Shown here in pieces: positions 9,301-59,679 of a stretch of 64,000 bases of DNA (position 1 is the stretch's first letter; each line of letters begins with the position of its first letter). The DNA is taken from the NCBI GenBank assembly GCA_964016885.1, contig OZ024741.1, positions 304,482,001 through 304,546,000 on the forward strand. The letters are read 5' to 3'. The DNA comes from Eledone cirrhosa. Lineage: Eukaryota. Under the pieces are notes generated by a model that was not told where the DNA came from, did no database searches, and was given only the letters and a program-made list of their open reading frames with translations. The position numbers and the translations under genes were made by a program.

Positions 9301-12300
9301 CATGTCACAATATAATAATGGTTTCTAAATTTTGACACAATGCCAACAAATTTTTTTTGGGGGGGATTATATTGATACTGAAAAACATTTTGTCCAATGC
9401 TCTACCAATTCTTCCAATCCACAGCCTTTATGCCACAACATAATAAAATGTCAACCTCTTGCTACTTACTGCTAGTAGACAACAGCAGAACCACAATCCC
9501 CAACGGTCTTTCCAAAGTACTTGGCATAGTCTGACTACAGATAGCACAATGGAAACCATCTTCTAACACAGATTGCTCACCGCTGTCTTGAACATCTTCA
9601 GTTATATCTGGAAAAAAGAAATAAAATTATTTTTATACAAACTTTTCTTTCAGGACTAGTGACAAAAAAAACTATTCCTTGTTTCCACATCTGCTTTGCC
9701 ATGTTCTAGTGTTTAGGGAGAATGTCTAAAATGTTGATAGAGCAAAGATAAACTTTATATATTGAAGGGCAGGGAACCGTTGGTTGAATTTAATTAGAAT
9801 AGGTTGCCTGCTTCAGGGAAGTATTTTGCAAAATTAACAAGGTTTACTGAATCATGCTTCAGCTTTCACAATATTAAATCATTAACCCTTTCAATACTAA
9901 ACTGTCTGAAAGTACCCTGGATTTATGATACAAAACTGCTCATTTTAAAATGTTTATATTTATATCAAATTTTTCCATCATAATTTCACTTAAGAAAGTT
10001 TTCTTAAGTAATGATCTAAATATCAGCTTACTAATGAAAGGGTTAGTTATTTCATTAAATTAATCCAAATATTGGATTATTTTCAAAATTAATTGAAACA
10101 CACATGTAGCGTACTTCATTAGAAATACAGTCATGAAAGGGTTAAGAAACATATTTCATCATCATCAGTGTTTTTGTGCCAACTTTTCTATACAGGCATG
10201 GGTTAGATGGGACATTTTCAGGCAATGTTTTAGAGCTGGATGCCCTCCCTGGCTCTAACCTTTTTAGTCAGTTCTTATGACACCAACAGATATGGTGTAC
10301 CTATTCTAAACTGGATACACAAGCAATATGAGACATAAAAATCTACTTAACTAACAAGAGTTTTATGACCGTTTTCCCTGCTAGAGCAGGGATTAGCCTT
10401 TCGGTGCCCCTTAATAGGCTTAACACATACCATGAGGTCTTTTTTGTGGCAATGTTTAACAGCCAGATGCCTATCCTAAGACCAAACTTTACAACCAGAT
10501 GCCTGTCCTAAGACCAAACCTTTTAGTTGCCTCTGATAACATGCAGGGAATATGAGATATATGAAAAAGCAAAAAAAAGTGATTAAGAATGAAGAACATT
10601 ATTACTTACCATCCATATCCATCGCTTGCTCCATGAAAGCTTTCTGTTTTGAAGCAAATTCTGCCATTAATTTCTGCCGCCGTTCTCGAGCCTTCTTTCG
10701 TCTGATAAAAAGAAACAAATGAAGAATAACCGATGTTTGCAAATGGTTATAGTTTCTATAGACAATAACATAATCCTGTGAAAATAATAATAATGGTTTC
10801 TAATTTAGACATATGGCCAGCAATTTGAGGAGGGGGAAAGTTGAGTACATTGGATCCAGTACTTGACTGGTACTTTATTTTATCAACCCTGGAAGGTTAA
10901 AAAGATTTGAACTCTGAACATAAAGAGCCATAAGAAATATGGCAAAGCACTTTTTTCTACCAATCCACCACCCCAACAACAATAATAACAGTAATAATTG
11001 TTTCTACTTTTGGAACAAAGCCAGCAATTTGAAGGGAAGGGGAAAGTCGATTAAATTGACCCTAATGCATTACTGGTATTTTATTTTATCGAAAGGATGA
11101 AAGGTCAAAGTTAACCTTGGCGGGATTTGATCTCAGGATGTAAAGGGCTGTAACTATATGCCGTAAAGCCTTTTGTCTGGTGCTCTACTGAGGCAGACAA
11201 TCCACTGCCCTATAACAATACATAAAAACAGTGGTTTATTTTGACCAGATAAAAGACCAATACCTCAGTACTTGCCATCCAATTGACAGTAATATTTCTC
11301 ACAAGAAATAGAATAAAATAAAACCTCTGCACATCTCACATTGCAAACATTTTGTTACGTTTTACATCCAAGAATAATTTCCATGCTGGCATGTGCTATA
11401 TGGGTTATCACAGTTCAAATGAGTTCCTATGCAAAATTACTGCCATTCTAAATCGGTTGGAGGAAAACATCTCACTCATACATTAGATATTTGGCATAAT
11501 TTCTATGGCTGGTTGTCCATCTTAATTAACCCCTTCATTACCATATTTCTCATGAAAGACATTGTATATGATTTTCAAATAATTTTGAAAGTGATGTTAA
11601 TGTGCATGAACAATGAAACATGGATGAGGTGAGAGAGAAACTGAGTACAAGAAGAATCAAATGTAGTGTGCAAAAGAGAAGACTGCTGGTATGGTCATGT
11701 GATGCACATGAAGGATGAGCATGGGGTGGAGAAGTGCTTGGAGCTCCTTGAGGAAATAACGAAAGAAAGCAGCATGTGAAGTGAGGATGTGCTGGAAAAG
11801 ACCTAGCCAACCCATGCAAGCATGGAAAAAAATGGACATGAAAAGAATGATGATTGTGATGATGTTTGCAACATAAAAATTCATACATAGAAGTAATGAA
11901 AGGTTTTTAGATAAACACCTCAAAACAGGGTTGACTATTGTAGAACCAAGAGTGGTTTCAGGTGGCTTTCTTTGTTCACCAACCACTTTAGAGAGTATTG
12001 GGTACATTTTATCATGGCATCCAACTAGTGAGGTTGCCAGTTATCTTGAAAGTTAAAGAGACCTCACTACTCTATATTACTTGTTTGTTCAAGGCAATAT
12101 AACCAAAAGGAGGGGGATAAAATACAGACTAGGTTTCAAACTGTAAGATATCAATTGCTTACCTTTCTTCTTTTTCTAGGTCTTCTGATGTTGCCATGCC
12201 TCTTTCTTGGGGTAGTTGTTTCTCTTTCACTTTAGGTTTTGTCTCATGATAAATTCTTTCTGTCTCTTGCAAACAAGAATAGTCTTGAGATGCCAGTTTA

Positions 12301-15300
12301 TCCAATAGAAGACCAATATAATAGGGTCCATCACCACAGTTTACAGAAGGGTTACTATGTTCAGCTGATGTCCATTCTGAACATTTCCTCATTGAAGTTG
12401 GTATGTAAGAAGTCTGTTTCTTATCAGACAACTTAGTGTGGAGTTTCATTAGTAACGATATAAGACTCTCTTTGACAACCACTCGTCTGCATGCCTCAGC
12501 CTTCTCTTCTGCTCCATCCTTAGAATCACATTTATACAGCATCTGACCTCTGGCTTCCTCTTCCTCATAAGAGTTTGAACAGTTTGGATTAGTGGCAGTG
12601 AATAATTTTGGGGTAGCACCAAAGTCTTTAGAAAATATATTTGCTATAGATTGAAATGGAGAGAAACCAGAAATATAACTACATATTACACAGCTTTCAA
12701 TAGAGGTGATTATCATAGATAAAAATAGTCCTTGGGAGTTGAATCATGAAATAAAGCAAGTTAATTTATAGGATTTTTAAATAATTTGATATAAGTTAAG
12801 GGAGACATGATGGCACATGATTTTGAACCCCAAAGATATAATATATATGCATTATTTATAAGAAAACTTATCACAACACATGTGTACTCTCAGGTCTTGA
12901 ATAATCCCCACCCCCCGCTCTTATTCCATCCTCCCCTACTTATTAAATTTGCAAATCTATCTCCAGCAAAATTTTATTTTAAGTGCTAGCAATTAATTTA
13001 CTTTAGACAATAAAAAACATTATACACAACAAAAAAATGAACATTACAAGAAATCTCATACATTATAAAATAAATAAGATGGGTTAGAGTTTCAAAATGT
13101 AAATTAATTCTAGTTTAAAAAAAAAGAAAAATTAACAGACAACCTAGAAATATTATTGATTTTTGAACCCACCCCCACCCCCACTTATTTGGGACCCGAG
13201 AGTAGCTAAACACTATCTTCACCAGGCTTGATGTAACACTTCATAGTCAAAGTTAGAATATTTGTAAAATGATTTGACTTACAAACAGAAGACATAGGAG
13301 AATGCTCCTTTTTGTCAGAATTTGATGTGTCACAGATGAGAATTTCTTGAATCCTGTGAGAAGCATTTGTCTGAAGACAATCACTGGGGAACCAACTTTC
13401 ATAATCACCATCTTTGACTTGTTTTTTACAACGATATTCCTACAAAATGGATTTAAAAATCAATCACAAACATCGCTATTTTTTGTTTAATATTTGTTTC
13501 TCTACAATAATAGATATAGAGTGATAATCCCAAAAATAAAATACCAGGACAAACCTGAAGTTCAGTAGTAGGAAATCTGGTGCCCAGTTCCAAAAGGAAG
13601 ACACAAAAGTATAGAATCGTCTCTGAAATATTGGTTTCCTTCAGAGCCTGCAAATAAAGCCAGTAAAAGACACATGTTTGATGAGTTTTTAAATCAAAAC
13701 AGTGAGTACACGCACCCACACACACACACAGAGTTACATAGTTGTTGTTGGACCTCCATTGCTTCTAACAACGATTGCTCTATCTGAATCATCATCATCA
13801 TCATTGTTTTTATATCCGTTTTTCCACGATTGCACAGGTTGGATGGGTCCTTTTCAGCACAACATCTCTCCTCTCATCGTGTTCTTTCGTCATCTCGACT
13901 GCTCGGGTCTTGGTCTACCTCTACTGCAGCTTCCTTTCACTGGCATTTCCTAGCACTTTTTCACCCAACGGAAATGCCAACTCATGAAATTAACATATAA
14001 GTGATTGAGCTTTCTGCAGACAACTGCAACATTAACATAGTTCTCAGGGAAATTCAGTGATACAATTTGTAACAAAGCAGTTCCTTGAATTACAGGTGCA
14101 GCTCATTTTTACCAGCTAAGAGAACTGGAGCAAAATGTGTTGTATCCTTGAGCAAGATGCTCAAGGACACAACACACCACTCGGACCAGGAATCAAACTC
14201 ACCACCTTACAATCATGAGCTGAACACCCTAACCACTAAGCCATGAGTCTTCACAACTACAAAATGTATCAATAACATAATAAAAAGCTGCAGTACAGGG
14301 AATTTCTACTTAGGATGGGAAATATGTTGTCAAAAGTTCCATCGAGCTACATATTTAATAAATTTTGGAGGGATGTAATTATCATTGATACTAAAAGTAA
14401 ACAGAGTTTAACAATTGAAATCAAATGGATTGCAGAGAACTCTCAACTTTGGCTTAACTTGAGACAATCTCTCTAGTGGTAATGCTACAATAAAATCCAC
14501 CCAGTACACCCTGTAAATTGTTGGTGTTGGTACCACAATAAAATGCCCCTAATCCACTCTGTAAAGTGGTAGAGTTGGTATTACGAAAATCAAACTCATG
14601 CTAGTATCACAATAAAATACACCCAGCATGCTCTCTGAGGTGATCGATGTTAAGAGATATATGAAAGGATGAATGACAAAATTGACCTCAGCAGGATTTG
14701 AACTCAGGGTGCAGAAAGCCAGAATGAATACTGCAAAGAATTCTATCCAGCATTGTAATGACTCAATGTGCAGATCTAAGCCAGTCTAAATCATGATATA
14801 TCTGGCCAACTGAGTCTATGAATTACTTTCAAATTTCTCTGTGTTCTTACACAATAAAAAAGTATTATAGAGTAGAGGGTTTTTTTTCCATGTATAAAGA
14901 ATGGTTTCTGATTTAGGTCGAAGGCCAACAATTTGAGGGAAGGAGAAAGTTGAATAGATTGGCCCCAGTACATTACTGTTGCTTTATTTTGTCAACCTTG
15001 TAAGGATGAAAGGCAAAGCTAACCTCAAAGGGATTTGAAGTCATAATGTGAAGGGCCGTAACTATGCTGCAAAGCATGTTGTCCAACATACTACCGATAC
15101 TGCCAATCAACCGCTCTCCATGTATAAAGAATAAAAAGAATTTTCGCAAAATTTCTTCATTTCGCAAAACCCACTTTGTAAAACACTGCAGCAGACTACA
15201 CTACAAATCTTGAAAAGGAATGGCCTTAAGCCAAGTAAAAAGATATTGATTTTTTATATAGGCACAATATTTCAGATTCATGGGTGGTACAGTTAATTTT

Positions 15301-32900: not shown

Positions 32901-35900
32901 ATATTTTTTGCTGTTTTCATCATCATCATCACCGTTTTACGTCCGTTCTTCCACGCTAGCATGGGTTAGACGGGTTGTCCTGCTGTGGGCAGTGTCTGGT
33001 CGGCTGACCATGCCTTGCTTATACAGGAACTGATTTGGCTTGATTTCTACAGCTGGATGCCCTTCCTAACACCAACCTCATTTACAGTGAGTGCTGGGTG
33101 CTTTTTCATAGCGCTTACACGTCCACTTTACAGTGTGGGCTGGGTGCTTTTTTGCCGTGGCACCTCCACGACCACCTTGCAGTGGTGGGTGTGGGGGCAT
33201 ATTGTCTATATGCTTCAGCTTGTACCCATGGGAGGTCGGGTACTCTGTATTACTGCGTGACGCCAGAGGTCACGGTCGTGTGACATCGCCTTTGAGAGGT
33301 GTAATTGGGTAAGGTCGGCTTTTATCACCTCATCCCAGGTCATCTTGGGTTTCCCCACTCCACGGTTTCCATCGACTTCTAGTGCTCTGCACCTTTTTAT
33401 GCAGCTGTCATCCTTCATACGCATCACATGTCCATACCAACGCAACCACCTCTCCTACACACAGCATTTGATTCCTCTTATGCTCAGTCTCTCTCTCAAT
33501 TCATTTATGCTTTGTCGTTCGCGTATATTACTATTACACATCCATCGGAGCATGCAGGCTTCGTTTCTCTCTAATCTATGTAAGTCTTCCACCTTCAGCG
33601 CCCAGGTCTCACTACCATGCAACATCGCTGTTCGAATACACGCATCATACAGTCTGCCTTTCATTTTGAGGGAGAAACCTTTTGCAGCTAGCAGTGGTAG
33701 TAGTTCCCTAAACTTCTTCCATCCCGTTCTTACCCTAGTTATTGTACTTTCTGAACACCCACCTCCGCTGCTAATTCAGTCACCTAGGTAGCAGAAGCTG
33801 TCTACTGTTTCTACAGAGCCCTCCCAGAGATTGGTCGTACTTGTTTCCTGTGGCTGTTTGCTGCTTGCTGTCTCAGCACAGCTGCTGCATGTGAAGCCTA
33901 CATTCTTAATTAAGCTTCCTGAGATCCCGCTACATCTCTTATGTACCCATTGTTTGCATTTGGGGCAGAGAACGGAGTTCCTACCTACACCTTTCCTACA
34001 TACTGAGCAAGGCCATTTCCCTGAGGGGATCTGGGTTCTGTTTTCTCGTCTACTTACAAGGACCTTAGTCTTTGTCATGTTGACTTTGAGACCCTTTCTT
34101 TGTAGTCCCTGCTTCCAAATTTGGAATTTCTTCTCTAGTTCTACCATAGATTCAGCTATAAGTGCGAGGTCATCAGCATACAGGAGTTCCCATGGGCATC
34201 CTGTCTTAAACTCCTCCGTTATTGCCTGCAGGACTATGATGAACAGGAGGGGGCTAAGAACAGAGCCCTGGTGGACCCCAACCTGTACGCTAAATTCCCC
34301 GCTATACTCATTGCTAATCCTAACTTTGCTGACTGCTCCCCTATACATGGCTTGTACCGCTTTCACAAGCTATTCATCTACTCCTAGTTTTCTAAGAGCC
34401 CACCAGATTACAGCACGTGGAACTCTGTCAAAGGCTTTCTCAAGATCGACAAATGCCAGGTAGAGTGGCTTACTTTTAGCTAGGTACTTTTCCTGTAACT
34501 GCCTGACAAGGAAGAGGGCATCAGTGGTGCCTCTTCCTGGTACAAACCCAAATTGCATCTCGTTTAGTTTCACCCGCTCCCTAATCAACTGTGCTATAAC
34601 TCTTTGTTACTTTCATGACCTGGTCCATCAGCTTTATGCCTCTATAGTTTCCTCTATCTAGTGCATCACCTTTACCTTTGTAGCAGTTGACAATGATGCT
34701 ACTGCACCAATCTTTTGGTATGACACCTAGTATTACCTGGTTAACAATACATGTGGTTATAGTGTGACCTACAGACCCAGATGCCTTCAGCATCTCGGCA
34801 GCTATACCCGATGGACCGGTTGCCTTCCCAATCTTCATATCTTTGATTGCCTTACTTACTACGCTGCTGCTGACTTGTACTGCTGGCCCCTCTATAGGGT
34901 CTACTTGGGGTAGGGTCTCTTCTTCCCATGCATTCTCCTCATTTAGTAATCTATCATAATGACTCTTCCATGCATCTTTCTTCTCAGCACTTGTGAGGGC
35001 AAGCTCACCTTTATCATTCCAGATACACTTCTCTCCAATGACATCATAATTCTCTCTGACACACTGCCTCGCAATCTTGAACACCTCCTGTTTCTGGTCC
35101 TCACGTTGCAAAACATGCTTGAATTTTCTATCCTCTGCTTCCCTCCTAGTTAAGTATACTTGTCGCCTAGCTTCCCTCTTGGTCTCTATGTAATGTACCC
35201 TGCTCCCCCCGTTCTTCCATTCTTTCCATGCCTGTCTCTTGGCCTTAACTGCCTCATCTACCTTATTGTTCCACCACCAAGTCACTCTCCTCCTGCTTGA
35301 GGTCTTACTCCAGCCACAGACCTCATCTGTCGCCTCTAGTAAGTTATTTTTTAGGAACTCCCAGTTCTCTTCTACATTGAATGTCTCTATCTGTTCTTCT
35401 TTACTGTCGTAGGCGTTGAGTAAAATATCTTTAAATCTGTTACTGGTTGAGGGGTCTTTCAGCTTCCAGATCTTTCTTCTCCAGGTTGGCCTCTGTTTCC
35501 AGGTTCGTCTAGTTCTGACTGTGAGGTCGCTGACAACTAAGCTATGTTGGGATGTACATTCCTCACTGTTTTATATCAAAATAAGATATATACATAAGCT
35601 ACCTGAACAGTGAGAAACACTATTGACACACTTTTGTAATTTTCAACATGATAAATACAATGAACCAGTGGTTGCTTTGTTGGAAAGCTGTAACCAGCAA
35701 AAACTTTCATTCACAAATTGCAAGAGGCCAGTGGCTTCACTTGAATATAGACCAGTACGTAAAACACACCCAGCCTCTACTAGCAGGGAAAAAGGAGGTT
35801 AAAGGATGCTGATGATCATGATAACAAATAGAAAATAAATAAAATGAAAACTTACTCTGTAATGTACTCTGAGTGAAAACTGACTCTACCATGTGTCTTA

Positions 35901-39147: not shown

Positions 39148-42100
39148 TGTGTGTGTGTGTGTTTATGTTTGCATCTATCTATGTTTATGTCTCATAACTT
39201 AAGAGTTTGACAAAATAGAGATTGGTAGAATAAGCACCAGACTTGGAAAAGAAACACAGCACCGGGGTGAATATGTTGACTAAATTGAAGTGGCAACCAA
39301 GCATGACCGCAGTCAGCTGAGTGAGACAAGTAAAAGAGTAGAAATGAATTTCTCATTAATTGATGATATAACAGTGTTTAGAAATTAGAGAAGTAATTAA
39401 AAAAGGTTTACTTACTACCAAATTCATCAAACGATGAAGGGTAAGTCATGTCTCTCACAGCCTGTAAATAATTTATCTGACTCTCACGGTGGTACTCTCC
39501 TTCAGCTGAAAATAGAAACCATTAAAATGTCTATGTAGCAGCCATACAAGAAAAAAAATTTTGAAGTAAAGTTCATGTATATATACAATTTAACTTTTAA
39601 CATCTTGCAATGATTTAGCAGAAGCTATCTAAAAACAGGCTTAACCCTTTAGCATTTAAACCAGCCATATCCAGCCAGAATTCTCTCACCTCTTCCAGTT
39701 CAAACTGATTGTAACCAGTTGCTCATGATGTTAAGGTATTGTCCTCAAAATAAATAATATCAAAATCTCATAGATTCAATATTATATAAGATAATTATGT
39801 AAGATGAAGCCTTTACCACAAAAACACAATAGTATATATAGAGTAATGTAAATGCTAAAGGGTTAATTTAAATGCTTGTAGAAACATTACACATGCATAT
39901 ATACAGCTTATCTCTTAAGATCTGGCAATGATTTAACAGAAAATATCCAAAACGCACTTGTTAATTCAGATGACTGTAGTATCGTTACTAGTGGAAAGTA
40001 GTAAAGACTTTAATTTTTAATGTGATACAGCCATAGGGCTGTTTTAAACTTTTCAAGACAGTTTTGCTAATATAGTTTCATATAGTAAAGGACATTCAGA
40101 TTTAAACCAGATGAAGATATAGAAATCAACCATAGTACAATGTAAAGCAATCTCACAGAAAGCAAATATCTTACTTAAACACAAGCAGAGTTGTATGTGG
40201 TTATTGTTGTTCTTTAACTATGATTGAGCAAGACATGATCACAGGTTTTATTACACTCTATCCATTTGATGTTTTTATATATTAGAGACTAAACTGTACA
40301 ATGTATTTTTCTTTAAGATGATAGGGTTTGATTTGAGGGAGATTTAGCTGCTATCTCTAGCAGGACTAGCGACTGCATAAAAGTTTCATGCGATATATAT
40401 GTCTAAATTCTTGAGATGAATTATTACAATAATCACTTCCAATGAATTGACTGCTAAAGAGTTGGAAGAAACAGCAACAACCTGCGACTGTGTCTTCCCC
40501 TGCCATTCCCGTGGAGGAACATCATCATCACCAACAACAACAACAGCAACAGCAACAACAACCGACCAGTACAGATTTTGCGGAATTGCAACTAATGATT
40601 TCTGCTCTGAGAAGGGAAGTTACAGGAATAAAGGCAAGCATTCGGGTAGGACCCCACAATGAGGGGTCTTATCGGAATGCCTTGCTAAAGAATCTCCCTG
40701 TACCTCTTGCTGAAAAGACTGAAAAGACTGCGGAATCTGCTACCCATGAAGTGATTGCTATTGGGGTACCAGAGGACAAGGCTGATCTTCAGGCATTTGC
40801 TGCCAGCTCAGCCAAAGACCTAGGCTGTGTTCCCCCAAAGGGTGCTCTCCGCCTTGGTCGACCTGGTCCCAAACCCAGACTCATCAGGCTGTCTTTTTCG
40901 GACCCCGCAGAGGCAACCTCATATCATCTGGCCTCTGCTAAAGCTGGGCGTGAAAATCAGATTACCTTCCGAACACGCCCAGGCCTACCACCCCATGTAC
41001 GTCCAAAGCTACGTGCTGCAGCTTCCTTGAATCGGAACTCAGCACAAGATGAAAGTTTTAGTCTGTGTGATGAAGGGCAGATCTGGAGGTTTGTCAAGGC
41101 TGGTGAAACGTGGAAGAGAGATACCAGCTGGTCTGAGTGTGATCTACCCACAATAACTGGCAATGTAAAAACTGCTACAACTCTGGGAAACTAAACCAGA
41201 ACAACCTGCCACCCTCTACACACCATCATAAACTGCGAGCAGGGTACAAATTGTTGTCCTTAAATGCTCGCAGTTTATGCAACAAGATACATCTGTTCGA
41301 ATCCTACGTCAGAAGCATCGACCCTGACTTCATCACAGTCACGGAAACATGGGCACATTCCTTACTCTGTGATGGGGTTTTCAGCATTACTGGGTACAAC
41401 CTTTTCCTCAAGGACCGCATTAACCGCCGTGGTGGTGTGATGGTCTACGTTCGTTCAAACTTTTCGGTAATTCCTTGCGTTGATTTGAACGAATCACAGG
41501 AAGAAGTTTTTTTCTGTGACATACGTATGACCATGTCAACACTTCTGCTTGGTGTTGTTTATCGCCCCCCAAACTACCATCAGGACACACAGCTTTGCGA
41601 TATCCTCAGAGTTGCTGCCAAGAAAACAGCCACTTATGTGTTTATTGCAGGTGACTTCAATCATCCCGAGATCGATTTGGAAACCTTTCGTTGGCCACAA
41701 GGTGCAAACGATTTCCTTGAACTAGTGCTGGACTCAAACTGGTCACAAGTAGTCACCTCTCCAACAAGAGGTGACAACACTTTGGACCTGCTCTTCACCA
41801 CTACTCCTGAAGTGGTTATCAGTTGTACTACTGAGGAACCTCTAGGCGACTCTGATCATGCTATGACCATTGCCAATCTGGCACTTGAGGGCAGCAACAA
41901 AAACCAGAGCCATCTCCAATCTGCTTGCTTTGATTGGAAGAAGGCGGATTGGAACTTGTACTGCACTGAGCTACAGTGCCCAAACTGGCATGAGATGTAT
42001 AACTCTGGAGATGTGAACACTATACTCCAGAGCATCCTGGACTCAATATGGATAGCGTGTGCAGCATCAGTGCCACGGAAGCGGAAAAATAACCACCCCA

Positions 42101-45100
42101 AAAGTGTAATTTGGGAAACTTCAGCGGTCCGACTTGCCAGGAAAGAATGTCGGAACGCTGAACGGGAATATAAACTGCATAAATCAGATGCCAACAGAAA
42201 AAAGCGGAATAACTCTTCTAACCATCTCAAGCAAGTGACAAAGAAGGCAGTGCTTGAATTTGAACAGTGCATCGCAACCAATCCCGACAGTAAGGTGTTC
42301 TGGAAATATGTACATTCAAAGCAGAGACCTCACTCTCCAGTTGGTCCTCTTCGCAATCCCCACACAAGCCAGATCACTGACGATCCCAAGGAATGCGCAG
42401 AACTCATTGCTGAGTGCTATGCAAGTATTTTTACTGTTGAAAACCAGAATGTACCATCTCCACCATCTCTAACATCAAATTCCATAACAACTATGGAATT
42501 TACACCTGCAATGTTGCGACGTCACCTTAAGAATAAGCGCAACTATGCCTCCCCTGGTCTTGATGGTGTGACATACCTGCTTCTCAAACGTGGCGGGTAT
42601 TTCCTTTTGCGCCAGCTTTCTTTCTTCTTTCAATACTATCTCAACAATAGTGCTACTCCGGAGCAGTGGAAAACTGCCAGTGTGATTCCCCTGTTCAAAA
42701 AGGGCAACCGCATGTCACCTGTCAACTATCGTCCAGTCAGTCTTACCAGCTGTATGGCCAAACTGATGGAATCCTGTGTCAGAGAAACACTTTGGAACTT
42801 CTGGAGCTCTCACAGCCTCATCCGGCCCTCACAGTTTGGATTTATCCCTAACTCCAGCTGCTGTGATCAGCTTATCGAGTTCCTTGAGGACATCACCCGG
42901 ATCACTGACAGCGGCTCATGGGTGGATGTTGTTTACCTTGACTTTGCTAAGACTTTTAATTCTGTGCCACACAAAAGACTTATGGCAAAACTCTCTGCAA
43001 TGGGTGTGAGGGATGATCTTTTTAACTGGTTGAAATCCTTCATTCTCAGCCGAAAAGAAGTAGTCACGGTTCTAGGACAGCATTCTTCACCATATGAGAT
43101 GTCATCTGGTGTACCACAGGGATCTGTTCTTGGTCCTCTTTTGTTTGTGGCATATATTAATGACATAGATGCCAACTTACAGAATACCACGGTACTGAAA
43201 TATGCAGATGACATCAAGCTGTACCTTGAAATCAAAAGGACTGATCCTGAAATTTACAACTCTTTCCTACAATCAGACCTGGACACAATGCAGCAATGGA
43301 TCACAGACTGGCAACTGAAGCTGGCTGTGGACAAGTGTACCACCATGCATTTTGGAAGGAAAAATCCAGCATCCACATACTCCCTCCACAACACTGATAT
43401 CAAAAAGTCCTCTTGTGAACGTGACCTGGGCATTACTGTCAGCAACGATTTGCGTTGGACAAAGCATGTCTCTAAGATTGTCAAGAAGGCCGAGGGTGTC
43501 TTGGCATCACTCAGCAAGACCTTTGTTAGCCGCTCTCCAGCCATCTATTTAAAACTGTATACAGCTATGGTACGACCACACTTGGAATTCGCATCATCAG
43601 TCTGGAACCCCTATCTTGCTCAGAACATTGACCTCCTGGAAACTGTTCAAAGACGTGCAACCAAGCGCATACCCTCCATCAGACACCTACCATACTCTGA
43701 ACGCCTTGCTTCCCTGGGCATGGATTCATTGAAGCTCCGACGTCTGGCAATGGACTTGGTGAATACCCACAAAGTTTTTAACCATCTCGCCAATTGCAAC
43801 CCTGAGCGCCTTTTTGATCTCCATGTGTCTAACACACGTGGACATGCCTACAAGATCAGAAAACAGCACAGCTCCCATGACTTTCGTAGACATTTTTTCA
43901 CGCTCAGAGTTGCTGAAGCATGGAACAAACTGCCTGCGTCAGTTGTTAGCTGCCGAGACACTGCATCCTTTAAGACACTCATGCTTCCCGAAATACGCCA
44001 AAACTACACCTGATGTACCCCTTCCATACACATGCACACGTGTGTATCATGACTCGTGCACTGTTCATTTTACTGATGTTTGTGCATTGCCCTATGTACT
44101 GTACATGTGACTTTTTTGATGAGTTGTGGTGCACCTGGGCACTGTACACAATATTTCATTATTGTTATTATATCATGACTCATACACTGTTCATTTTCCT
44201 GACATTTGTACATTATTCTATGTACTATACATGCACCTTTGATGAGTTGTAGTGCACCTGAGCACTGTACACAATAATTTCATTATATTATTATTATTAA
44301 ACAGTTCGGAACATTTCATTAGATACTCTAATGATTCTGCCAATCCACTGCCCTTCATATGGTGCTACAGGTAGAATTCCATTATAACGAATTTTTCAGT
44401 ATAACAACATTTTTTTCAACCCCCAAGGTAATAACAAACAAATGCTCAATTTGTTTCGGTTGATCTCGTTATAAAGAATTTTTCATTACAACAAATATTT
44501 ATTTATACCCCCATGAATTTTGTTATAATGGAATTTCACTGTATAACAAAGCCTGGCAACAATATTTAACTGGTTTTATATCTTGTTAGGAAGAGATTCA
44601 AAGAAGTTGTTTAACTACAGCCAATTATGGGATTCAAATATCATATTGTGAGTATTGACAAATAAATCATCCAAGAAAACATATGTAATTTCTGTTGTTT
44701 TTTTTTGTTTTTTTTTTCTTAATAAACTACACCCAATGTATTGTGCAAGGTTTTAAGTCTACGTTATATAGCTGCTGTTTTGGTGATGGTAAGGATGGTT
44801 TAGAGATGTTAGAGGAAGATTTGACTGTTACATTGAGCTGGGTGAACATCAATTGACATAAAAATGCTCTTTCTCCCACCATCCATTATCATCATCATTT
44901 TAAAGGCTGTTTTTCCATACTGGCATGGGTTGGACAAGACCTTTTGAGACTGTTTTATAACCAAATACAGTTTCTGCACCAACCTTTTACACCATGCTAG
45001 AATATGTAAAACAAAAAAGGAAATGGGTCCTATACTTCGGATGGAGTCATAGGGGCACAGCAGGTCTCAAACATTTTTAACCAGATAGAACCCATCCCTC

Positions 45101-48100: not shown

Positions 48101-51100
48101 GAGCAAAACCTATACAAATAAAATCAATAATTTCAATGAGTTTATCATGAAATTCAATACATATTTTCATAAAACAAAAATTGAAAATAAGGAATTTCTA
48201 TATATTATCTAATACATCAACTAAAAGGTGGAAAACTATTCTTTTTTTCTTTTATTCTTTTACCTGTTTCAGTCAGTAGACTGCAGTTATGCTGGGGCGC
48301 TGCCTTGATTTAGTCGATCACATCAACCCTAGTTCTTTTTTTCAATTCTGATACATATGTTATCTAACTCTTTCTGTTGTCCTGAGCTGCTGGACACAAA
48401 TGCATATATCATCATCATCATCATCATTTTATGTCTGCTTTTCCCTGCTTGCAAGGGTGGGACGGGTCTTATTAAGCACAGCATATCTCCATTTGTCACG
48501 ATCCTTTGTCATCTCCTCCGTGAGCTTCAGCGATCTGAGGTCTGCTCTCACCACCTCCGCCCATGTTTTTCGTGGTCTTCCTACTACTGGCACTTCTTTA
48601 CTCAGCGGTCATCATCCATGCACATCACATGCCCATACCAACGCAGTCTTCTCGCCCGCACACTACAGCCTATCCTTCTTATACACAGTTTCTCTCTCAA
48701 CTCGTCTATGCTTGGTCATTCACGCACATTGACATTGCACATCATCCAACGGAGCATGCTTGCTTCATTTCTCTCCAGCCGTCGCATATCTTCCACAGTT
48801 GCTGCCCATGTCTCACTACCATACAGCATCGCGCATCTTACACAGGCATCATATAACTAGCCTTTCATTCGTAGTGAGAAACCCTATAATAATATACTAG
48901 CTGATAGCATTACAATTATACTTCCTATTCACACACAGCCTCAAGTTAATCTATGTCTTGTGAATGAATTTCGTAGATGTAAACACTGAGGAAAATAATG
49001 AAAAATTACTCACCCAGCTGGATTCATAACACTAGCATCTCCACAATCACAGGCTCCACCAGCTTTGCTACGGAACATGTTGTAGTCATGTCCTTCATGA
49101 TTACCAGCCTGAAAGCACTTGGAGCACAGTGACATGCATGGTGTTATGCCACATGTTCGACATCTGTATGCCACAAAATTTGCAGTCCACACAAGGCCAC
49201 ATGTTGTTGCATTATCATATATACGCACTAGAATAGAGAAAAAAAATGCAAAAAACAATTAAACATAGATAATTTGATCATTTAGTCCTTTCAATATCAA
49301 ATTTCTAATGAAAGACACTGCCCATATTTTAAAATCATTTTGAAAATAATCAAGAATTAAGAATAATTTTCTCACTATTAAGCTGGTGATCAGAGCATAA
49401 CTTATGATGGAAAGTTTTTATATAAACACTTTAAAACCGTTTTGAATCATAAAACCAGGAGTCATTTCAGGCAGTTTGGTATCAAAAGGGTTAAAGGAAG
49501 GAAGACTTTCTCTTTTCTATCTCAAATTGGTGCTTATAATATCAATTCATGTTGAAAATTTAAATTAATATACTGGAAATTTGAACTGAATTGAAAACAA
49601 AATACCAGCTGCCTCCTGGTAACTTTACATCACATTCAATTCTCGACCCTTCCTCACAAAATATCTTGCTAGGATTGACATAATGTCACAGTGAAAGAAC
49701 ATTAAAATTGTTTTTCTATGGCTTTCTCCTGATAAAGGACGCGAATTGGCAGAGTGATAGAGTGTTTGGTTGAATAACTCAGTATTTGTTCCAGCTCACT
49801 CTGCTCCAAGTTCAAATCCTGTAGAAGTCAACTTTGCTTTTCATCCTTTCAAGGTTGATAAATAAGGCACCAGTCAAGTATTTGTGTCAATTCTTCCTCA
49901 GTTTCACTCTCTCTCTTCTTCTCTGGAAGAAATCAATTGCATTCAGACATGGAGAGGGGATGGGCTGTCGGGTTTAAAATGCCCAAGGTGTAAGGATGGC
50001 GCCCCTACAATTCCATCAGGAATTTATTTTCTGTAAGTTTCAAACAGAAGAGAAAGTGTTTTATGGCATTCATGCCATTCACAAGAACAATAGTGAAATA
50101 CAGTAAAGAGAAACAGCTACAATGGATAGAAACATTTCATTAACTCAGCTTGCCAATAGGTGTTACTACTATTGTGGCAGTTCCCAAAAATAATATTCAT
50201 GGTTATATTTATTCTCCAGTAGCCAAAGTGCAGGTGCACTGCAAGGTAACAAAACTTGCAAATATACTGTGGTATGGTGTGTAAAAGTGAACTGTATGCA
50301 CAACAACTTGGTATATAAGCTTGAGAGTTAAATACCTTGCCAGGGTGAACAGATGTATGTATGCATAGACTCGTAACTCCTGATGGAGTTGCAGGAGTGT
50401 TGCAGTGACACATAACATGTCTTGGGCATATTTTAAACCTGGTAAAGCCCATCCCCTTACCAGATTTGAATACAGCCAATTTCTTCCAAAGAGTGTGAGA
50501 AAGTGATAGGGAGGAAGTGAGACAGAGATATTAAGGAAGAATCAACTCCAGTATTGTACTGGTATTTTTTTTATTGATCTTGAAAGGATGAAAGGTAAAG
50601 TTGATCTCGGCAGTATTTGGACTTGGAGTGCAGAGAGCCAGAATAAATACTGCAAAGTATTCAATCTGACATTCTAATGACTGCTAATTTGCCACCTTGG
50701 TAAATGGATACAAATCATTAACCCTCCCATTAATAGTCTAATGGATTGTTAACAACTTCTATTTCATGGAATAATTAATAGAAAAGACTAACAGCCAATG
50801 GAGCAACTCCTACATGCTCACTCAACCTACTAGAATTAGTAACTAAGTCTCCCTCAAATCATACTTTATATAATGTGGTTTTGGCACTATATACAGAAAA
50901 AAAAACAATGATCATGGCAGAAACACCTTTAAACATAGGCCTTCTGGATCAGGACTAACCTAGGGCTAAACAACATTATAAAAGACTACTTAATTATATA
51001 ATCTTCCTCATAGCATCTAATTTACCATGCTAGCATGGGTCAGGCAGATTTTCAATACAGCACATTACTATACCTTTTAATCCAATGTCATCTTACTAAA

Positions 51101-54100
51101 TCTTTAAATTCTGTGATTTCCTCCCTATGCCCTTGCTACAAATATATTCTACTTTCATCACAGTTGGTGTCATCTATTCATCATCATCATCATCACCGTT
51201 TTACATCCGTTCTTCCACGCTAGCATGGGTTAGATGGGTTGTCCTGTTGTGGGCAGTGTTTGGTCGGCTGACCTTGTCTTGCTCATACAGGTACTGATTC
51301 TGGCTTGATTTTTACAGCTGGATGCCCTTCCTAACACCAACCTCATTTACAGTGAGTGCTGGGTGCTTTTTTTCCGTGGCGCCTACACGTCCACTTTACA
51401 GTGTGGGCTGGGTGCTTTTTTGCCGTGGCACCTCCACGACCACTTTGCAGTGGGAGGTTGTGGGGGCATATTGTCTATATGCATCAGCTTCGGCTTGTAC
51501 CCACGGGAGGTTGGGTACTCTGTATTACTACGTTACGCCAGGTGTAATTGGGTATGGTCGGCTTTTATCACCTCATCCCAGGTCTTCTTGGGTCTCCCCA
51601 CTCCACGGTTTCCATCGACTTCTAGTGCTCTGCACCTTTTTATGCAGCTGTCATCCTTCATACGCATCACATGTCCATACCAACGCAACCGCCTCTCCTG
51701 CACACAGCATTTGATTCCTCTTATGCTCAGTCTCTCTCTCAATTCATTTATGGTTTGCCGTTCGCGTATATTACTATTACACATCCATCTGAGCATGCAG
51801 GCTTCGTTTCTTTCTAATCTACGCAAGTCTTCCACATTCAGTGCCCAGGTCTCACTACCATGTAACATTGCTGTTCGTATACATGCATCATACAGTCTGC
51901 CTTTCATTTTGAGGGAAAAGCCTTTTGCAGCTAGCAGTGGCAGTAGCTCCCTGAACTTCTTCCATCCCATTCTTACCCTAGTTATTGTACTTTCTGAACA
52001 CCCACCTCCGCTGCTAATTCGGTCACCTAGGTAGCAGAAGCTGTCTACTGTTTCTACAGAGCCCTCCCAGAAATTGGTGGTATTTGTTTCCTGTGGCTGT
52101 TTGCTGCCCCAGCACAGCTGCTACATGTGAAACCTACATTCTTAATTAAGCTTCCCGAGATCCCGCTACATCTCTTGTGTACCCATTGTTTGCATTTGGG
52201 GCAGAGAATGGTATTCCTACCTACACCTTTCCTACATACTGAGCAAGGCCATTTCCCTGAGGGGATCTGGGTTCTGTTTTCTCGTCTACTTACAAGGACC
52301 TTAGTCTTTGTCAGAACATTATTCATACCTGTGCAACCATTTGATTGGCAAATTTCTATAAGCTTTTATTTGTTTAGTATAACTATTTATCAAACAAAAA
52401 CTACTTAACTATTTTCCTAGTGTAGCTTGAATTTAAAATATGCTCACAGTCAGCTATGATTCTTCAAAAATGTAGATATTGAGAACCAGGCACTGCTGGC
52501 TTCATGCATAGGAGAGGAAGATAGCCAAATACTAAGATTTGACCAATCACTTCCTTTTCATACCATTGAGACCGTTGGTGTCTTCCCGCCTCAAACTGCC
52601 ATTTCCCCCATAAAATGAGAGGAGTGCATCCTGCCTAAAGAAGAGGTGGAATGGCTGATGCATCATTTATTTCTAGCTATTCTCCGTGGCAATGTCATCA
52701 CCATTTTGTCTGCGAAGTGCAGCTGAGATATACTCTCTCCCATCCCCTTACTCTCACTATTAAATTTTTGTTCTTTCTCTTGCATTTTTTTTTTCTGGTA
52801 AACATACATCATAATTTAATAAAAATTTGTTAAATAATGTGTGTGTGTGTTTATTTGATTATATAGAACCAATGAGAAATCAACATAACATGAACTTAGC
52901 TATTCCTCACTTCAGTTAACATAAGGTTTTGTCTTTTATCGAACCTCAGATATTTTACAAGATGGCGAATTGGCAGGGTCATTTGAACATCAGATAGAAT
53001 GCTTTGTGTTCTTCTTTCTGAGTTTCTACACTCTCAATTCATCCTGCTAAAGTCAACTTTGCCTTGCACCCTTTCGAGGTCAATAAAAACAGTACTGGGG
53101 CGATTCTTCCTAACTTCCTCTCTCTCTTTCTCTGAAAGATATCGGCTGTGTTCAGACCTGAAGAGGGGATGGACTCCGCCAGGTTTAAAATGCCCCAAAT
53201 GTCATATGTCCATTCGACGCCCCTATGATTCCACCAGGAGTTACAAATCCTTACATACATTTAAAGAGATATTTTACAGACAGAATTAATAACAAGATAA
53301 ATATGAAACTAATAATGATTTTTGACACACAGTGTTTCCACAATGTTGTAAACTCTGATTTAGTAGACCTATCCTCAAAGGTGTTCTTGCTATGACCATC
53401 CATCCATTTTTCTTCAGGTATTGTGTACTAGCCAATGTGTATCTCTTTTTTTTTAAGATAGTATAGCGTTACTTGAGACAGCTTCTACGGGGTGTCCCAA
53501 AAAATGTATACACACTTTGGTTACCTGTACAGGTAATATTTATTAGAATGCTGTTGAAGTGTGTATACATTTTGAGGGGACATCCTGTATTTCTATTAGA
53601 CCGAGAACTGCATAACCCCACTCATCCACTTACTGGCTTCAAAGTATGATGGAGTTGTAACAAATAAACCATCGCTTGTTTCCTTGGATTCTACTGTTTC
53701 ACAGTCATACCAGGATCTATTTTCATTTGAAAACAACCAATATTGAAGCCATGCAAAACACCACATTTCATTACATGACAATACATTGTACTACCCTTAT
53801 ATTTTCCATCAGTGATCGTTTGGGTACAACATTTTCATCTAAAACCAAAGTAATTGTGAAGGCCGAATCATTCAGTTTCGATATCAAATTCTTTTGAGGT
53901 CAAATTTGTATTTTACTCCTCCAGAGTAAATAAATTATTTACTTAAATTCAATCATTATACCCTACAAAATATAACCTTTATAGCGTGTAAGAAAACCCA
54001 CATTTCAAACAAAACTATAACTCCAAAAATTAGCTTTCCACATCCAGATCAGGAGCAGCAGCTATATATATAACTATGTTTGGTAAAGAGAGATGTACGT

Positions 54101-55620: not shown

Positions 55621-57021
55621 TTTTACAATATATTACTGGTATTTAAGTAATAGTTTCATCTCTCAGACCACTCCTGGACACAGAGTTGTTGGGGTTTTTG
55701 TATAAGTGATATTGCTGTACTTTTTGACCCGTAAAGGCTATGTTAAAAGCTGTAAGTTGAAGAACACTATCAAAAATATTTGTATGTACGCATTTATATA
55801 TATATATATAAATTTCATTCGCCTGTAACATATTGAGGTCCACAATGAATGTTAATAAAACTTCATTATCAGCCCTGTATTTGAAAGTTCTCGAATGGAA
55901 CTTAAAATAACGGTACATGATAAAACTTTGAAAAACGTATCTTCCTCCAAATATTTTGGCAGCCTGCTGAACCATGATTCAAATACAAGTCATGAATATC
56001 TGTTGGAAAATTTCAATCTTTATTATGGTATAAAAGATACTTTTAAACAAATGACACTATAATATTTCCAAAACATGCGTTTTGTCTATTTGATTGTATG
56101 GTTGTAAAACAGACATTATAGTCAAAACATGGTCAACAGTTACAGCGTTTTTATCATGTCTTTAACGAATGTTGCACCTTTCGTGGAAAGGTTATGTGAG
56201 TAATGTTGAGGTTTTGGAGTTAGCGAATGTTTTCAGCATAGATCTCTCGCAATTTAGCAAATTGGAATGAGCAAGCCATGTTTTTCGTACGAAAGAGGAC
56301 AGATTTTGCGGGCAAAAGCCAACCGGCAGGAGACCCAGGGGTAGACCCCGAGCAAAATGGTTGGATAACATCTATGACCTTGGCTGTTCTTGCTTGGCGA
56401 CCCAGCCAGATCAGTTGGAGACGGCTGCTTTTGGCAGGACTCGCTGGAAGGAGTGTTTGAAGACTCCACCAGGTATAAGTTGGCGAAGAAAAAGGAAGTC
56501 TTCCAAATCATTTTTGCAATGGAGAAATCAAAAGTTAAGAAAACTTTAAATCCATGCCCGTCGCCAGACGTCGATACAGGGGTGGGGTGGGGATGTCAGA
56601 ACATTCTGGACGTTTTTCATAAATTCTATTTTCTAAGCAGAAGGTAGTACCATCCACTGTACCCCCACCCCGCCACTGTCAACGAATCCATTTAAACCTG
56701 ATCTGTAAAGGTGTTTTGGCAGTATCGGTAGAGGGTCGGGCGCCAGGCTTTGTGGCATGGAGTTACGTCCCTTTTCGGTCTGAGTTCAAATCCTGCTGAG
56801 GTTAACTTTGCCTTTCATCCTTACGGGGTCGATAAAATAAAAACCAGTAATGCACTGGGTTAATTGCTGGCCTTGTGCCAAAAAGTAGAAACAATTATCT
56901 ATGTGGATATAACCGCGTCATATTGAAACAAGATACAAGGAAAAGATTCCTCCAAACAATCTATTTAAATGTTTGATTGTGACCGAGTTTGGTTTTCTAA
57001 GGCTGGTTTTGTTAGCCACTC

Positions 57022-57570
57022 CTCATCATCATCATCATTTTACGTCCGTTTTTCCCTACTTGCAAGGGTGGGACAGGTCCTCTTCAGCACAGCATCTCTC
57101 CATTTGTCACGGTCCTTCGTCATCTCTGTAAGCTTCAGCAATCTGAGGTCAGCTCCCACGAGCTCTGCCCATGTTTTCCGTGGTCTTCCTCTACTGCGTC
57201 TTCCTTCCATTGGGATTACTTGGCACTTCTTCACCCAGTGGTCATCATCCATGCGCATCACATGGCCATACCAACACAGTCTTCTCTCCTGCACACTGCA
57301 GCTTATTCCTCTTATACACAGTTTCTCTCTCAACTCGTCCATGCTTGGTGATTCACGCACGTTGACATTGCACATCCATCAAAGCATGCTTGCTTCATTT
57401 CTCTCCAGCCTTCGCATATCCTCCGCAGTTGCTGCCCAAGTCTCACTACTATGCAGCATCGCGCATCTCACACAGGCATCATACAGCCGACCTTTCGTTA
57501 GTAGGGAGAAACCCTTTGTTGTCAACAGAGGAAGCAGCTCCCTAAGTTTCTTCAATCCTATCCTTATTCT
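57022..57570 (-). mobile_element. RTE family B 3' fragment
   Basis: ORF 57040-57375: QERRLCWYGHV...GRRSRGRPRKTW...DRDKWR...REKRT* directly followed by the (TGA)n tail. Confidence 0.85.
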
Positions 57571-59679
57571 ATGTAACTCAAGGTTACATAAACCAAAAGC
57601 AAGGTAAGATATCTGCCAAAAACTAAAAACTACAGCTGTCAGTCACAATCTAGTGTGGCTTGGGAGTATGTACCATACTTTCACCAAGGGTTTCAGGTAC
57701 TCATGCAGTCGCAAGCAGACATAAATATCCTCTCACTCCTCCCTCCCCTTGATCCAGTGGTACAGCTGGAAGGGGAGAGAGCTGCTCTTCATGCAGTCAC
57801 AAGCAGACTTATACACCCTCTCGACCCTCCTTCCCTTAATCCAGCAGAATATCCAATATGTGACAGCTGGAATGAGAGGGGGCTGCACCAAGTCTGTGCT
57901 GTTACTTTCTTTACTGACCCCAAAAGAATGAAAAACAAAGTGTACTGGGTGCATTTTTCACAGCACTGACATGTTACACAGGGCATACTTGGCATATTTT
58001 ATTGTGGTACCAACATTAACAATATACAGGATGTATTAGGTGCATTTTTTCATGGGCATAATACAGGGTGTAATGCTTCCATTTTTTGTGACACCAGCAC
58101 CAACCTCTTGCAGGGTGCATTGAGTATTTTTTGTTGTGGCACCAGCATACTACCTTACAGAATGGACTGTACTTTTTATGGTAGCTCCAGCACTCCCTCA
58201 TTACAACTCTAAGGTGCTCAATGTGTACAAATATGGAATGCTTCATGAATTTGCATGATTAAAAGTAGGCAGTCTGTTTACCTATCAAAGAAGTTTGCTC
58301 AATGATCCCTGATTTTTACCATTTAAAAATATATTTTCAAAGTATAACACGAGACTTCAATTCCCACTTCTTTCTTTAACCCTTCAATACCAACCCACCT
58401 GGGACCATCTATGATATGAAACCTCTCATTTTACATTACCATCATCATCATTTTATGTGTATTTTCTATGCATGCATGGGTTAGACAGGTTGTCATGTTC
58501 TGAGGCTAGACATGTCAGATGGTTGTGTCTTGCTTATATGTTAATTTTTGACATGGCTTCTACAGCTGGATGCTCTTCCTAACACCAGCCACTTTACGGC
58601 ATGTACTGGATGCATTTTATCATGGCAGTGCCACTACTTTTCCTTCATAATTTTATCTAAGAATTGAGTTCCGTTCCAGATACTAGTTTACTAATGAGAA
58701 AGTTAGGTATTTTATTAAATCCATCTAAATCCTTAGTTATTTTCAGAATTATTTGAAACACATGAGTAGTGTTTTTCATTAGAAATATGGTAATAAATGA
58801 GTTATCTTCAAGTATTTTATACGACTGGGGGAACAGATTGCCTTATTTATTTCTTCAAAAATATAGCAATATAGCGCTAATTCATCCCAAACAGTGTATT
58901 TCATTAGAAATATTGCAATGAAAGGGTTAAACATATGTCTGTAAGCTAAATTTACTGCATTTATAATAAATGATATTCAGAAAATCTTAATACCAGTTTT
59001 AAAATATTTATATTCTCTCTAGTATATAAATTATTATCAGCAGCCAATTGGCAGAATCATTAGAACATTAAATTCAATGCTTTGCAGTATTCATTCCAGT
59101 TCTGTGTACTCTCTGAGTTCAAATCCCACAAAAGTCAACTTTGCATTTCATCCTTTTGAGGTCACTGAAAAAGTACCAGTTAAGTACTGAGAGTGATTCT
59201 TCCTTTATATTTCCTTCTCTGTGTTCAGATCTGGAGAGAGATGGGCTCTACCAGGTTTAAAGTACACAGAGTATGTTACTAGTGCACCCCTAAGTCTTTT
59301 GATAGGGTGTACAGGGATAATGAGGATAGCTACTAGAGAGTTCTAGTTGGGGGAGGTCAGATTTCATTTTATGCTATATATGTTCATTTCTTATATAAAA
59401 TGTCAGGTAGCAGACAATGAAATAAATTAAAGTGAAAAGTAAAACCTGACAATATAATGAAAATAAATGACACAAAATATTCATTGAATTAATTTTCTAA
59501 TTTACTTTCTGTAGTGAAAGAATAGAACTAGAATTTAGACATGTTCTAGTCAGGTAGTAAAAATGAAGACATTTTCAATGTATGTTTTGTTCAATCACTT
59601 CTTAACACATAATCACAATAACCCATGCTAGCATGGAAGATGGACGTTAAACGATGATGATGATGATGATATATGCTTA

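Follow-up and report, generated by a model that had tools for sequence, protein, structure and literature searches.

Work on how LINEs translate their second open reading frame (ORF2) has centered on L1 and SART1, for which reinitiation is the model. Some older descriptions of insect and vertebrate elements whose ORFs overlap reportedly suggested frameshifting but did not test it. Mammalian L1 and silkworm SART1 are described as using termination-reinitiation, at an inter-ORF spacer in L1 and at an overlapping stop-start in SART1, and as yielding a free ORF2p (PMC5972666; also PMC1965478 for reinitiation). For L1 the mechanism is a proposal, whereas for SART1 it has been demonstrated.

Viruses and LTR-derived genes provide the textbook cases of -1 frameshifting on G_GGA_AAC (PMC5009743). 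In retroviral gag-pol and the Ty3/gypsy-derived PEG10, a shift-prone X_XXY_YYZ heptamer ends the RNA-packaging ORF, and the enzyme ORF follows in the -1 frame (PMC5009743). The available part of the same source names HeT-A as the only non-LTR element needing a frameshift, and favors unusual initiation for L1 (PMC5009743). LINE frameshifting is not without precedent, because a figure legend of PMC5911963 states that ORF2 of the Dictyostelium APE-RT LINEs TRE5-A and TRE3-A depends on a -1 frameshift; it gives neither slippery site nor experiment. CR1/L2-lineage LINEs with type II ORF1 have an ORF2 with apurinic endonuclease (APE) and reverse transcriptase (RT), and an L1-like ORF1 with an N-terminal Cys/His domain (PMC4120745; Metcalfe and Casane, 2014). 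The available text of that study mentions neither "frameshift" nor "overlap," and ORF2 translation is untreated in it. A full-text literature search, with most subscription papers and Repbase reports outside its reach, found no description of a slippery site in CR1/L2 LINEs.

The window analyzed here, 64,000 nucleotides of Eledone cirrhosa DNA (GCA_964016885.1, contig OZ024741.1, positions 304,482,001 to 304,546,000, forward strand), contains one LINE copy with such a site (Table 1). Its ORF2 encodes APE endonuclease and RT without RNase H or integrase, as in the CR1 group (Jockey superfamily); the CR1 label itself is taken from domain order and a C-terminal motif, and the relatives in the tree are unnamed. 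The copy has a 5' truncation (at about 40470-40475), which the sequence-only reading of this DNA had overlooked, a short tandem-repeat 3' tail and a possible short target-site duplication. The ORF1 open frame of the window copy spans 40451-41194. Full-length copies have an ORF1 of 457 aa with an N-terminal Cys/His (PHD-like) region that is missing from the window copy; this region gave no PHD match in Pfam and only weak matches to C1_2 and FYVE_2 (E 1.2-1.4). ORF1 was unrecognized by Pfam, and its ESM Atlas leads, Baculo_FP among them, were all below 0.9. The structure model of the ORF1 C-terminal half (pLDDT 84.6, last residues of low confidence) had as best Foldseek matches the human L1 ORF1p trimer (E 4.9e-6, TM about 0.34), and the nearest named homologs are Octopus vulgaris proteins (60% identity). 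With CR1/L2-lineage LINEs of the type II ORF1 kind the element has in common the APE and RT of ORF2 and an L1-like ORF1 with an N-terminal Cys/His region, and it shares with L1 and SART1 a bicistronic RNA and with L1 a probable ORF1 type (coiled coil, RRM, CTD).

Table 1. Features of the LINE copy and its ORF1/ORF2 junction, in window coordinates.
Feature	Position	Strand	Basis or remark
Young, 5'-truncated CR1-group LINE copy	40475..44298	+	97% identity to full-length copies over 40470-44299
Possible 6-bp target-site duplication, AAACAG	40469-40474 and 44299-44304		Flanks of the copy
ORF1 3' half (coiled coil, RRM, CTD)	40475..41194	+	Sequence and structure model
Slippery heptamer G_GGA_AAC, ORF1 phase	41185..41191	+	Encodes Gly-Asn
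ORF1 stop UAA	41192..41194	+	Directly 3' of heptamer
ORF2 frame (-1), 956 codons	41143..44013	+	First AUG at 41440
APE endonuclease within ORF2	~41257-41859	+	Pfam Exo_endo_phos, ORF2 aa 39-239
RT within ORF2	~42703-43389	+	Pfam, ORF2 aa 521-749
C/A-rich, weakly structured stretch after ORF1 stop	41195..41226	+	Contains in-frame CUG 41206-41208
Predicted long hairpin over endonuclease start	41227..41279	+	15-bp stem in subfamily A
3' UTR	44014..44298	+	Internal duplication of ~120 nt and (ATT)n tail

The junction has the anatomy of a -1 frameshift site. ORF1 ends CTG GGA AAC TAA, so the heptamer stands in X_XXY_YYZ phase, and the -1 ORF is open across it, overlaps ORF1 and lacks a start of its own; the reading frames bear out what the sequence-only reading of this DNA had said on each of these points. 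That reading had also expected AUG initiation to truncate the endonuclease, and the first ATG indeed lies inside the Exo_endo_phos domain; given the extent of that domain, a start there would remove about 60 of its residues. The protein sequence proposed for the -1 continuation was the same on re-translation. The likeness to gag-pol and PEG10 lies in the heptamer and the frame of the enzyme ORF; unlike them, the element is a non-LTR element with APE and RT and no protease, and no stem or pseudoknot was found 5-9 nt downstream. Unlike L1 and SART1, the ORFs overlap without an AUG in the window's family, and unlike TRE5-A and TRE3-A, which are amoebozoan, tRNA-gene-targeted and have an unrelated ORF1, this is a CR1-group element of an animal, and its heptamer is canonical and conserved.

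The family likely makes an ORF1-EN-RT fusion of about 1,400 aa by programmed -1 frameshifting, probably at low efficiency. Ribosomes would translate ORF1 to G_GGA_AAC, with UAA next, where tRNA-Gly and tRNA-Asn would slip in tandem from GGA AAC to GGG AAA; the minority of ribosomes that slipped back one base would continue into the AUG-less ORF2, giving in a full-length copy a product of 457 + 941 = 1,398 aa. Slow termination at the adjacent stop may help slippage, which would be inefficient since no conserved stimulator lies at the usual 5-9 nt. Many ORF1p would be made per enzyme, an excess like that expected for gag-pol and PEG10 (PMC5009743), and the fusion would join ORF1p oligomers via the coiled coil, bringing a few RT molecules into the RNP. 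As Pfam finds no protease, integrase or RNase H in the element, the fusion would remain in one piece unless cleaved by an enzyme of the host. The RNP would then have a different architecture, with RT tethered to ORF1p. Frameshifting would also explain AUG-less ORF2s annotated as starting inside the endonuclease, and show which protein has to be expressed when CR1 retrotransposition is assayed. With a conserved seven-base signal that can be mutated, ORF2 translation can be put to a direct test in many animal LINEs of a large group.

Outside the overlaps, 18 of 5418 ORF1 codons carry a strict heptamer, which gives about a 5% chance for the 16-codon overlap alone, and the case therefore rests on conservation. 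First-look scans of the genome gave at least 1,200 candidates (1291 and 1207, of which 40 and 150 were scored); the LINE is abundant and has recently spread. Among ten copies taken whole, eight have a 502-codon ORF1 frame (457 aa from its AUG) and five of these also an intact ORF2 frame. Removal of duplicates from 154 loci left 117 distinct junctions, a sample in which decayed copies are under-represented because the loci are the best-scoring matches. The sequence GGGAAACTAA, with heptamer and stop exact, is found in 111/117 of them, the other six showing single-copy changes, and none of the 113 copies with an intact heptamer has an ORF2-frame AUG across the junction. Conservation of heptamer and phase, which the sequence-only reading had proposed to check by alignment, is thus confirmed among the genomic copies, and the missing AUG proves to be a family trait, not a loss in the window copy. 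The retrovirus-style fusion proposed there is supported for the family, with its conserved heptamer, phase and lack of AUG; it fails for the window copy, which cannot itself make the fusion because the 5' UTR and ORF1 start are missing. The window copy reflects how the family is built without being a functional unit of its own.

The copies fall into two subfamilies, A and B, with identities of about 80% overall, about 72% in ORF1 and 88% in the endonuclease. Between A (66 loci) and B (50 loci), 51 of 280 positions differ and none of the 15 over 41180-41194 (p about 0.05 for this comparison alone). In most B copies the ORF2 frame opens just 16 nt before the stop. In contigs of two other organisms (K and L) the preceding codon has changed from CTG to CAG, with G and heptamer kept. 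Queries for more divergent families in the same genome (P0005, part of P0052, P0008) returned only A and B among the loci fetched, and no matches were found in metagenome contigs (query P0001), viral contigs or genome contigs (ORF1 alignment). In-frame ORF1-ORF2 fusions occur in single copies (L070, L091, L092/L087, L093/L152), made by differing indels or by +1 in an A-run; the L087 and L152 fusions are no closer to one another than to other B copies. We attribute these fusions to mutation of the single copies or to assembly errors and do not count them in favor of a fusion protein.

Wider conservation is seen in distant ORF1 proteins. HMMER retrieved 45 ORF1 homologs, and the tails of 38 were compared with the window protein (39 in all, identity to the window 21-62%) at the protein level only; P0004, P0007, P0009, P0011, P0013, P0032, and P0038, which end early or lose the frame ahead of the last conserved Trp, were left out of the alignment, as were P0002 and P0003. 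After the last invariant Trp the tails are 5-42 aa long and variable in sequence, and 30 of the 39 contain Gly-Asn, 3-33 aa after the Trp and 0-18 before the stop. In 10,000 draws, shuffled tails contained it in 4.9 cases on average (maximum 13) and same-length windows of the protein bodies in 1.1 (maximum 6). The preceding residue is S, Q, E, P, L, V, or A, and a G-ending codon is available for it in 30/30; with 19% of tail residues lacking such a codon, p is about 0.002, although the tail p-values overstate independence because the homologs are related to one another. The remaining nine tails have KN (5), EN (3), or GK (1).

Gly-Asn might instead be a C-terminal protein motif of ORF1p, with the heptamer as its by-product and an unrelated mechanism for ORF2, and the widest conservation evidence is indeed at the protein level only. 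Such a motif would have to wander over 30 aa of a variable tail, and the KN, GK, and EN that stand in its place match the residue pairs specified by slippery heptamers. Moreover, the codons are GGA AAC after a G wherever DNA was seen, and esterase-like ORF1s of another type end on U_UUA_AAC, so that a protein motif is quite improbable as the explanation. The comparison indicates that the heptamer is conserved beyond protein constraint, and the low-confidence tail of the window's model would fit a nucleotide signal better than a fold.

The phased slippery heptamer extends to distant relatives seen as DNA. L095, found with the ORF1 alignment and having a distant ORF2, carries the codons ACG GGA AAC in phase with ORF1. 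The ORF2 frame of L095 is -1, begins 13 nt upstream of the site and lacks a Met ahead of the endonuclease, and its ORF1 continues 16 codons past the site. A second sample was taken by RT motif and not chosen on the junction: 80 loci, of which 32 had the endonuclease N-terminus and 31 of those enough upstream DNA. The 31 make 21 families, grouped by eye and in some cases represented by single, possibly mutated copies. Heptamer, -1 frame and absence of AUG coincide in 5/21 families, and the arrangement is therefore common, not universal, among the relatives. The five are L156 (A_AAA_AAC), the L157 and L168 families (both U_UUA_AAC_UAG, with esterase-like ORF1), L173 (the relaxed heptamer G_GAA_AAC_UAA), and L185 (U_UUU_UUA); a strict heptamer has a chance of about 2-20% in each such overlap. 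L169, L181, and L200 have ORF2 in the -1 frame with slippery-looking runs and in-frame ATGs, L159, L178, and L199 the -1 frame without a heptamer, and L170, L171, L174, L188, L191, and L195 ORF2 in the +1 frame; no ORF1 was seen in L177, L196, L222, and L225. In a FastTree tree of 29 ORF2 fragments, with unnamed relatives, L156 joins the window's A and B with support 1.0 and L173 does so weakly (0.47), and the U_UUA_AAC families form a separate branch.

Recoding and not reinitiation may be the ancestral and widespread enzyme route in CR1/L2-group LINEs, with -1 shifts on at least four heptamers, +1 shifts or readthrough in sister lineages, and a Gag-Pol-like fusion in the ORF1p oligomer without a classic stimulator; we consider this broader reading slightly less likely than not.

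Several junctions of the RT-selected loci have features of their own. The overlaps of L170, L174, L191, and L195, with ORF2 in +1, contain CCC_UUU_C/U or UCA_UUU_CGC, which recall the UUU_CGN +1 motif described for amalgaviruses; L170, L174, and L191 also have in-frame ATGs. At L175:2404 and L180:948 the two ORFs share a frame with one stop between them and no Met for about 160 codons after it, and both loci are candidates for stop readthrough. L169:2147-2156 has A_AAU_UUA, the slip site of Rous sarcoma virus, followed by UAG in a -1 arrangement, but with in-frame ATGs before the endonuclease. A shared TGTAAATA-like motif, which matches the Pumilio-binding consensus, stands shortly after the ORF1 stop in L159, L169, L170, L171, L174, L180, L181, L191, and L195, whatever the relative frame, and is absent from the window's family. 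The RT-selected loci (L156-L235) are 80 eukaryotic LINE loci inside prokaryotic genome assemblies, most likely host contamination.

Stimulators 3' of slippery sites mostly start 5-9 nt downstream, a minority 12-15 nt (PMC5009743). A stem-loop or pseudoknot at 5-9 nt, usual and not obligatory, was not found by folding with programs that are not pseudoknot-aware, and none of eight sites folded had a significant stem 3-13 nt from the heptamer. The pairings suggested by the sequence-only reading, CCTGC/GCAGG and AACAA/TTGTT, did not hold up: the complementary 5-mers are present and not favored (z -0.7 for 41192-41260, z -0.4 for 41197-41260), and CCTGC/GCAGG is broken in subfamily B. The sole close pairing is a 5-bp ACAAC/GUUGU without covariation. 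For a long-distance, BYDV-like interaction, the duplex between the sequence after the slip site and the 3' UTR was no better than that of shuffled sequences in three A copies (143, 159, and 166 of 200 equally good). In L156 a hairpin with z -2.6 lies about 15 nt downstream of the slip site. As they lack a conventional stimulator, these sites also bear on how frameshifting works.

The strongest predicted structure, not mentioned in the sequence-only reading, is a 15-bp stem, 41227-41241 with 41265-41279 (z -5.7, 0/200 shuffles as good, best of 189 element windows in A). In B its outer 9 bp persist, one of them compensated, and its inner pairs are gone; the covarying pair is A-U in 57/66 A copies and G-U in 8, and G-C in 42/50 B copies, with 7 B copies mismatched. 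The region reaches only z -1.3 in B, and L095 has nothing comparable. Starting 35 nt after the heptamer and 18 nt after the in-frame CUG, the hairpin is too far away for a classic stimulator and only partly conserved, and because of these distances it fits reinitiation at least as well as frameshifting.

Ribosomes might stop at UAA and, slowed by the hairpin, restart at a non-AUG codon, with CUG 41206 as the best candidate (or 41233), to make a free ORF2 protein. Weak start codons are aided by a hairpin some 14 nt further on. The in-frame CUG has A at -3 and occurs in both subfamilies, AACCTG after the stop being kept in 109/117 copies, and the outer stem is kept with its compensatory change. 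As far as the available text of PMC5972666 and PMC1965478 goes, the stop-restart site of SART1 depends on a structure that follows it, and in L1 the AUG of ORF2 can be replaced by other sense codons. Reinitiation leaves unexplained, however, the phased heptamer across distant relatives, the fixed -1 frame and Gly-Asn up to 18 aa before the stop, and sits poorly with a hairpin that weakens in B and vanishes in L095. It is also hard to square with L156 and L185, whose ORF1 stops fall 16 and 34 nt into the endonuclease, and we consider it unlikely.

Frameshifting also has to be weighed against an ORF2 made from spliced or internally started RNA, for example through a 3' splice site AG at 41198-41199 joined to an upstream AUG. 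A YAG does lie just past the stop in both A and B, at an ORF2 codon boundary, but no pyrimidine tract precedes it, L095 has no such AG, and the heptamer would go unexplained. No splice joints were found in the six of eight runs that had cover, and contigs of possibly-RNA runs (which may be DNA) are unspliced across the junction. Splicing or internal initiation is accordingly very improbable.

Dozens of copies lie on one strand at 35-40 kb spacing on C28 at about 124.7-126.35 Mb, and likewise on C178 and C1185, many with an intact 957-codon ORF2 frame, an arrangement that suggests amplification of the LINE as part of a large tandem array. The window also holds broken pieces of another LINE, at 33261-35570, 51309-52120, 56969-57607, and 48333-48860, which is RTE-like by its motifs. 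On the minus strand, an open frame at 12159-12743 resembles a host exon, with a likeness to UBR3-type ubiquitin ligases; a PDB search with it gave no match. Because of this resemblance, the LINE may sit in an intron, in antisense orientation.
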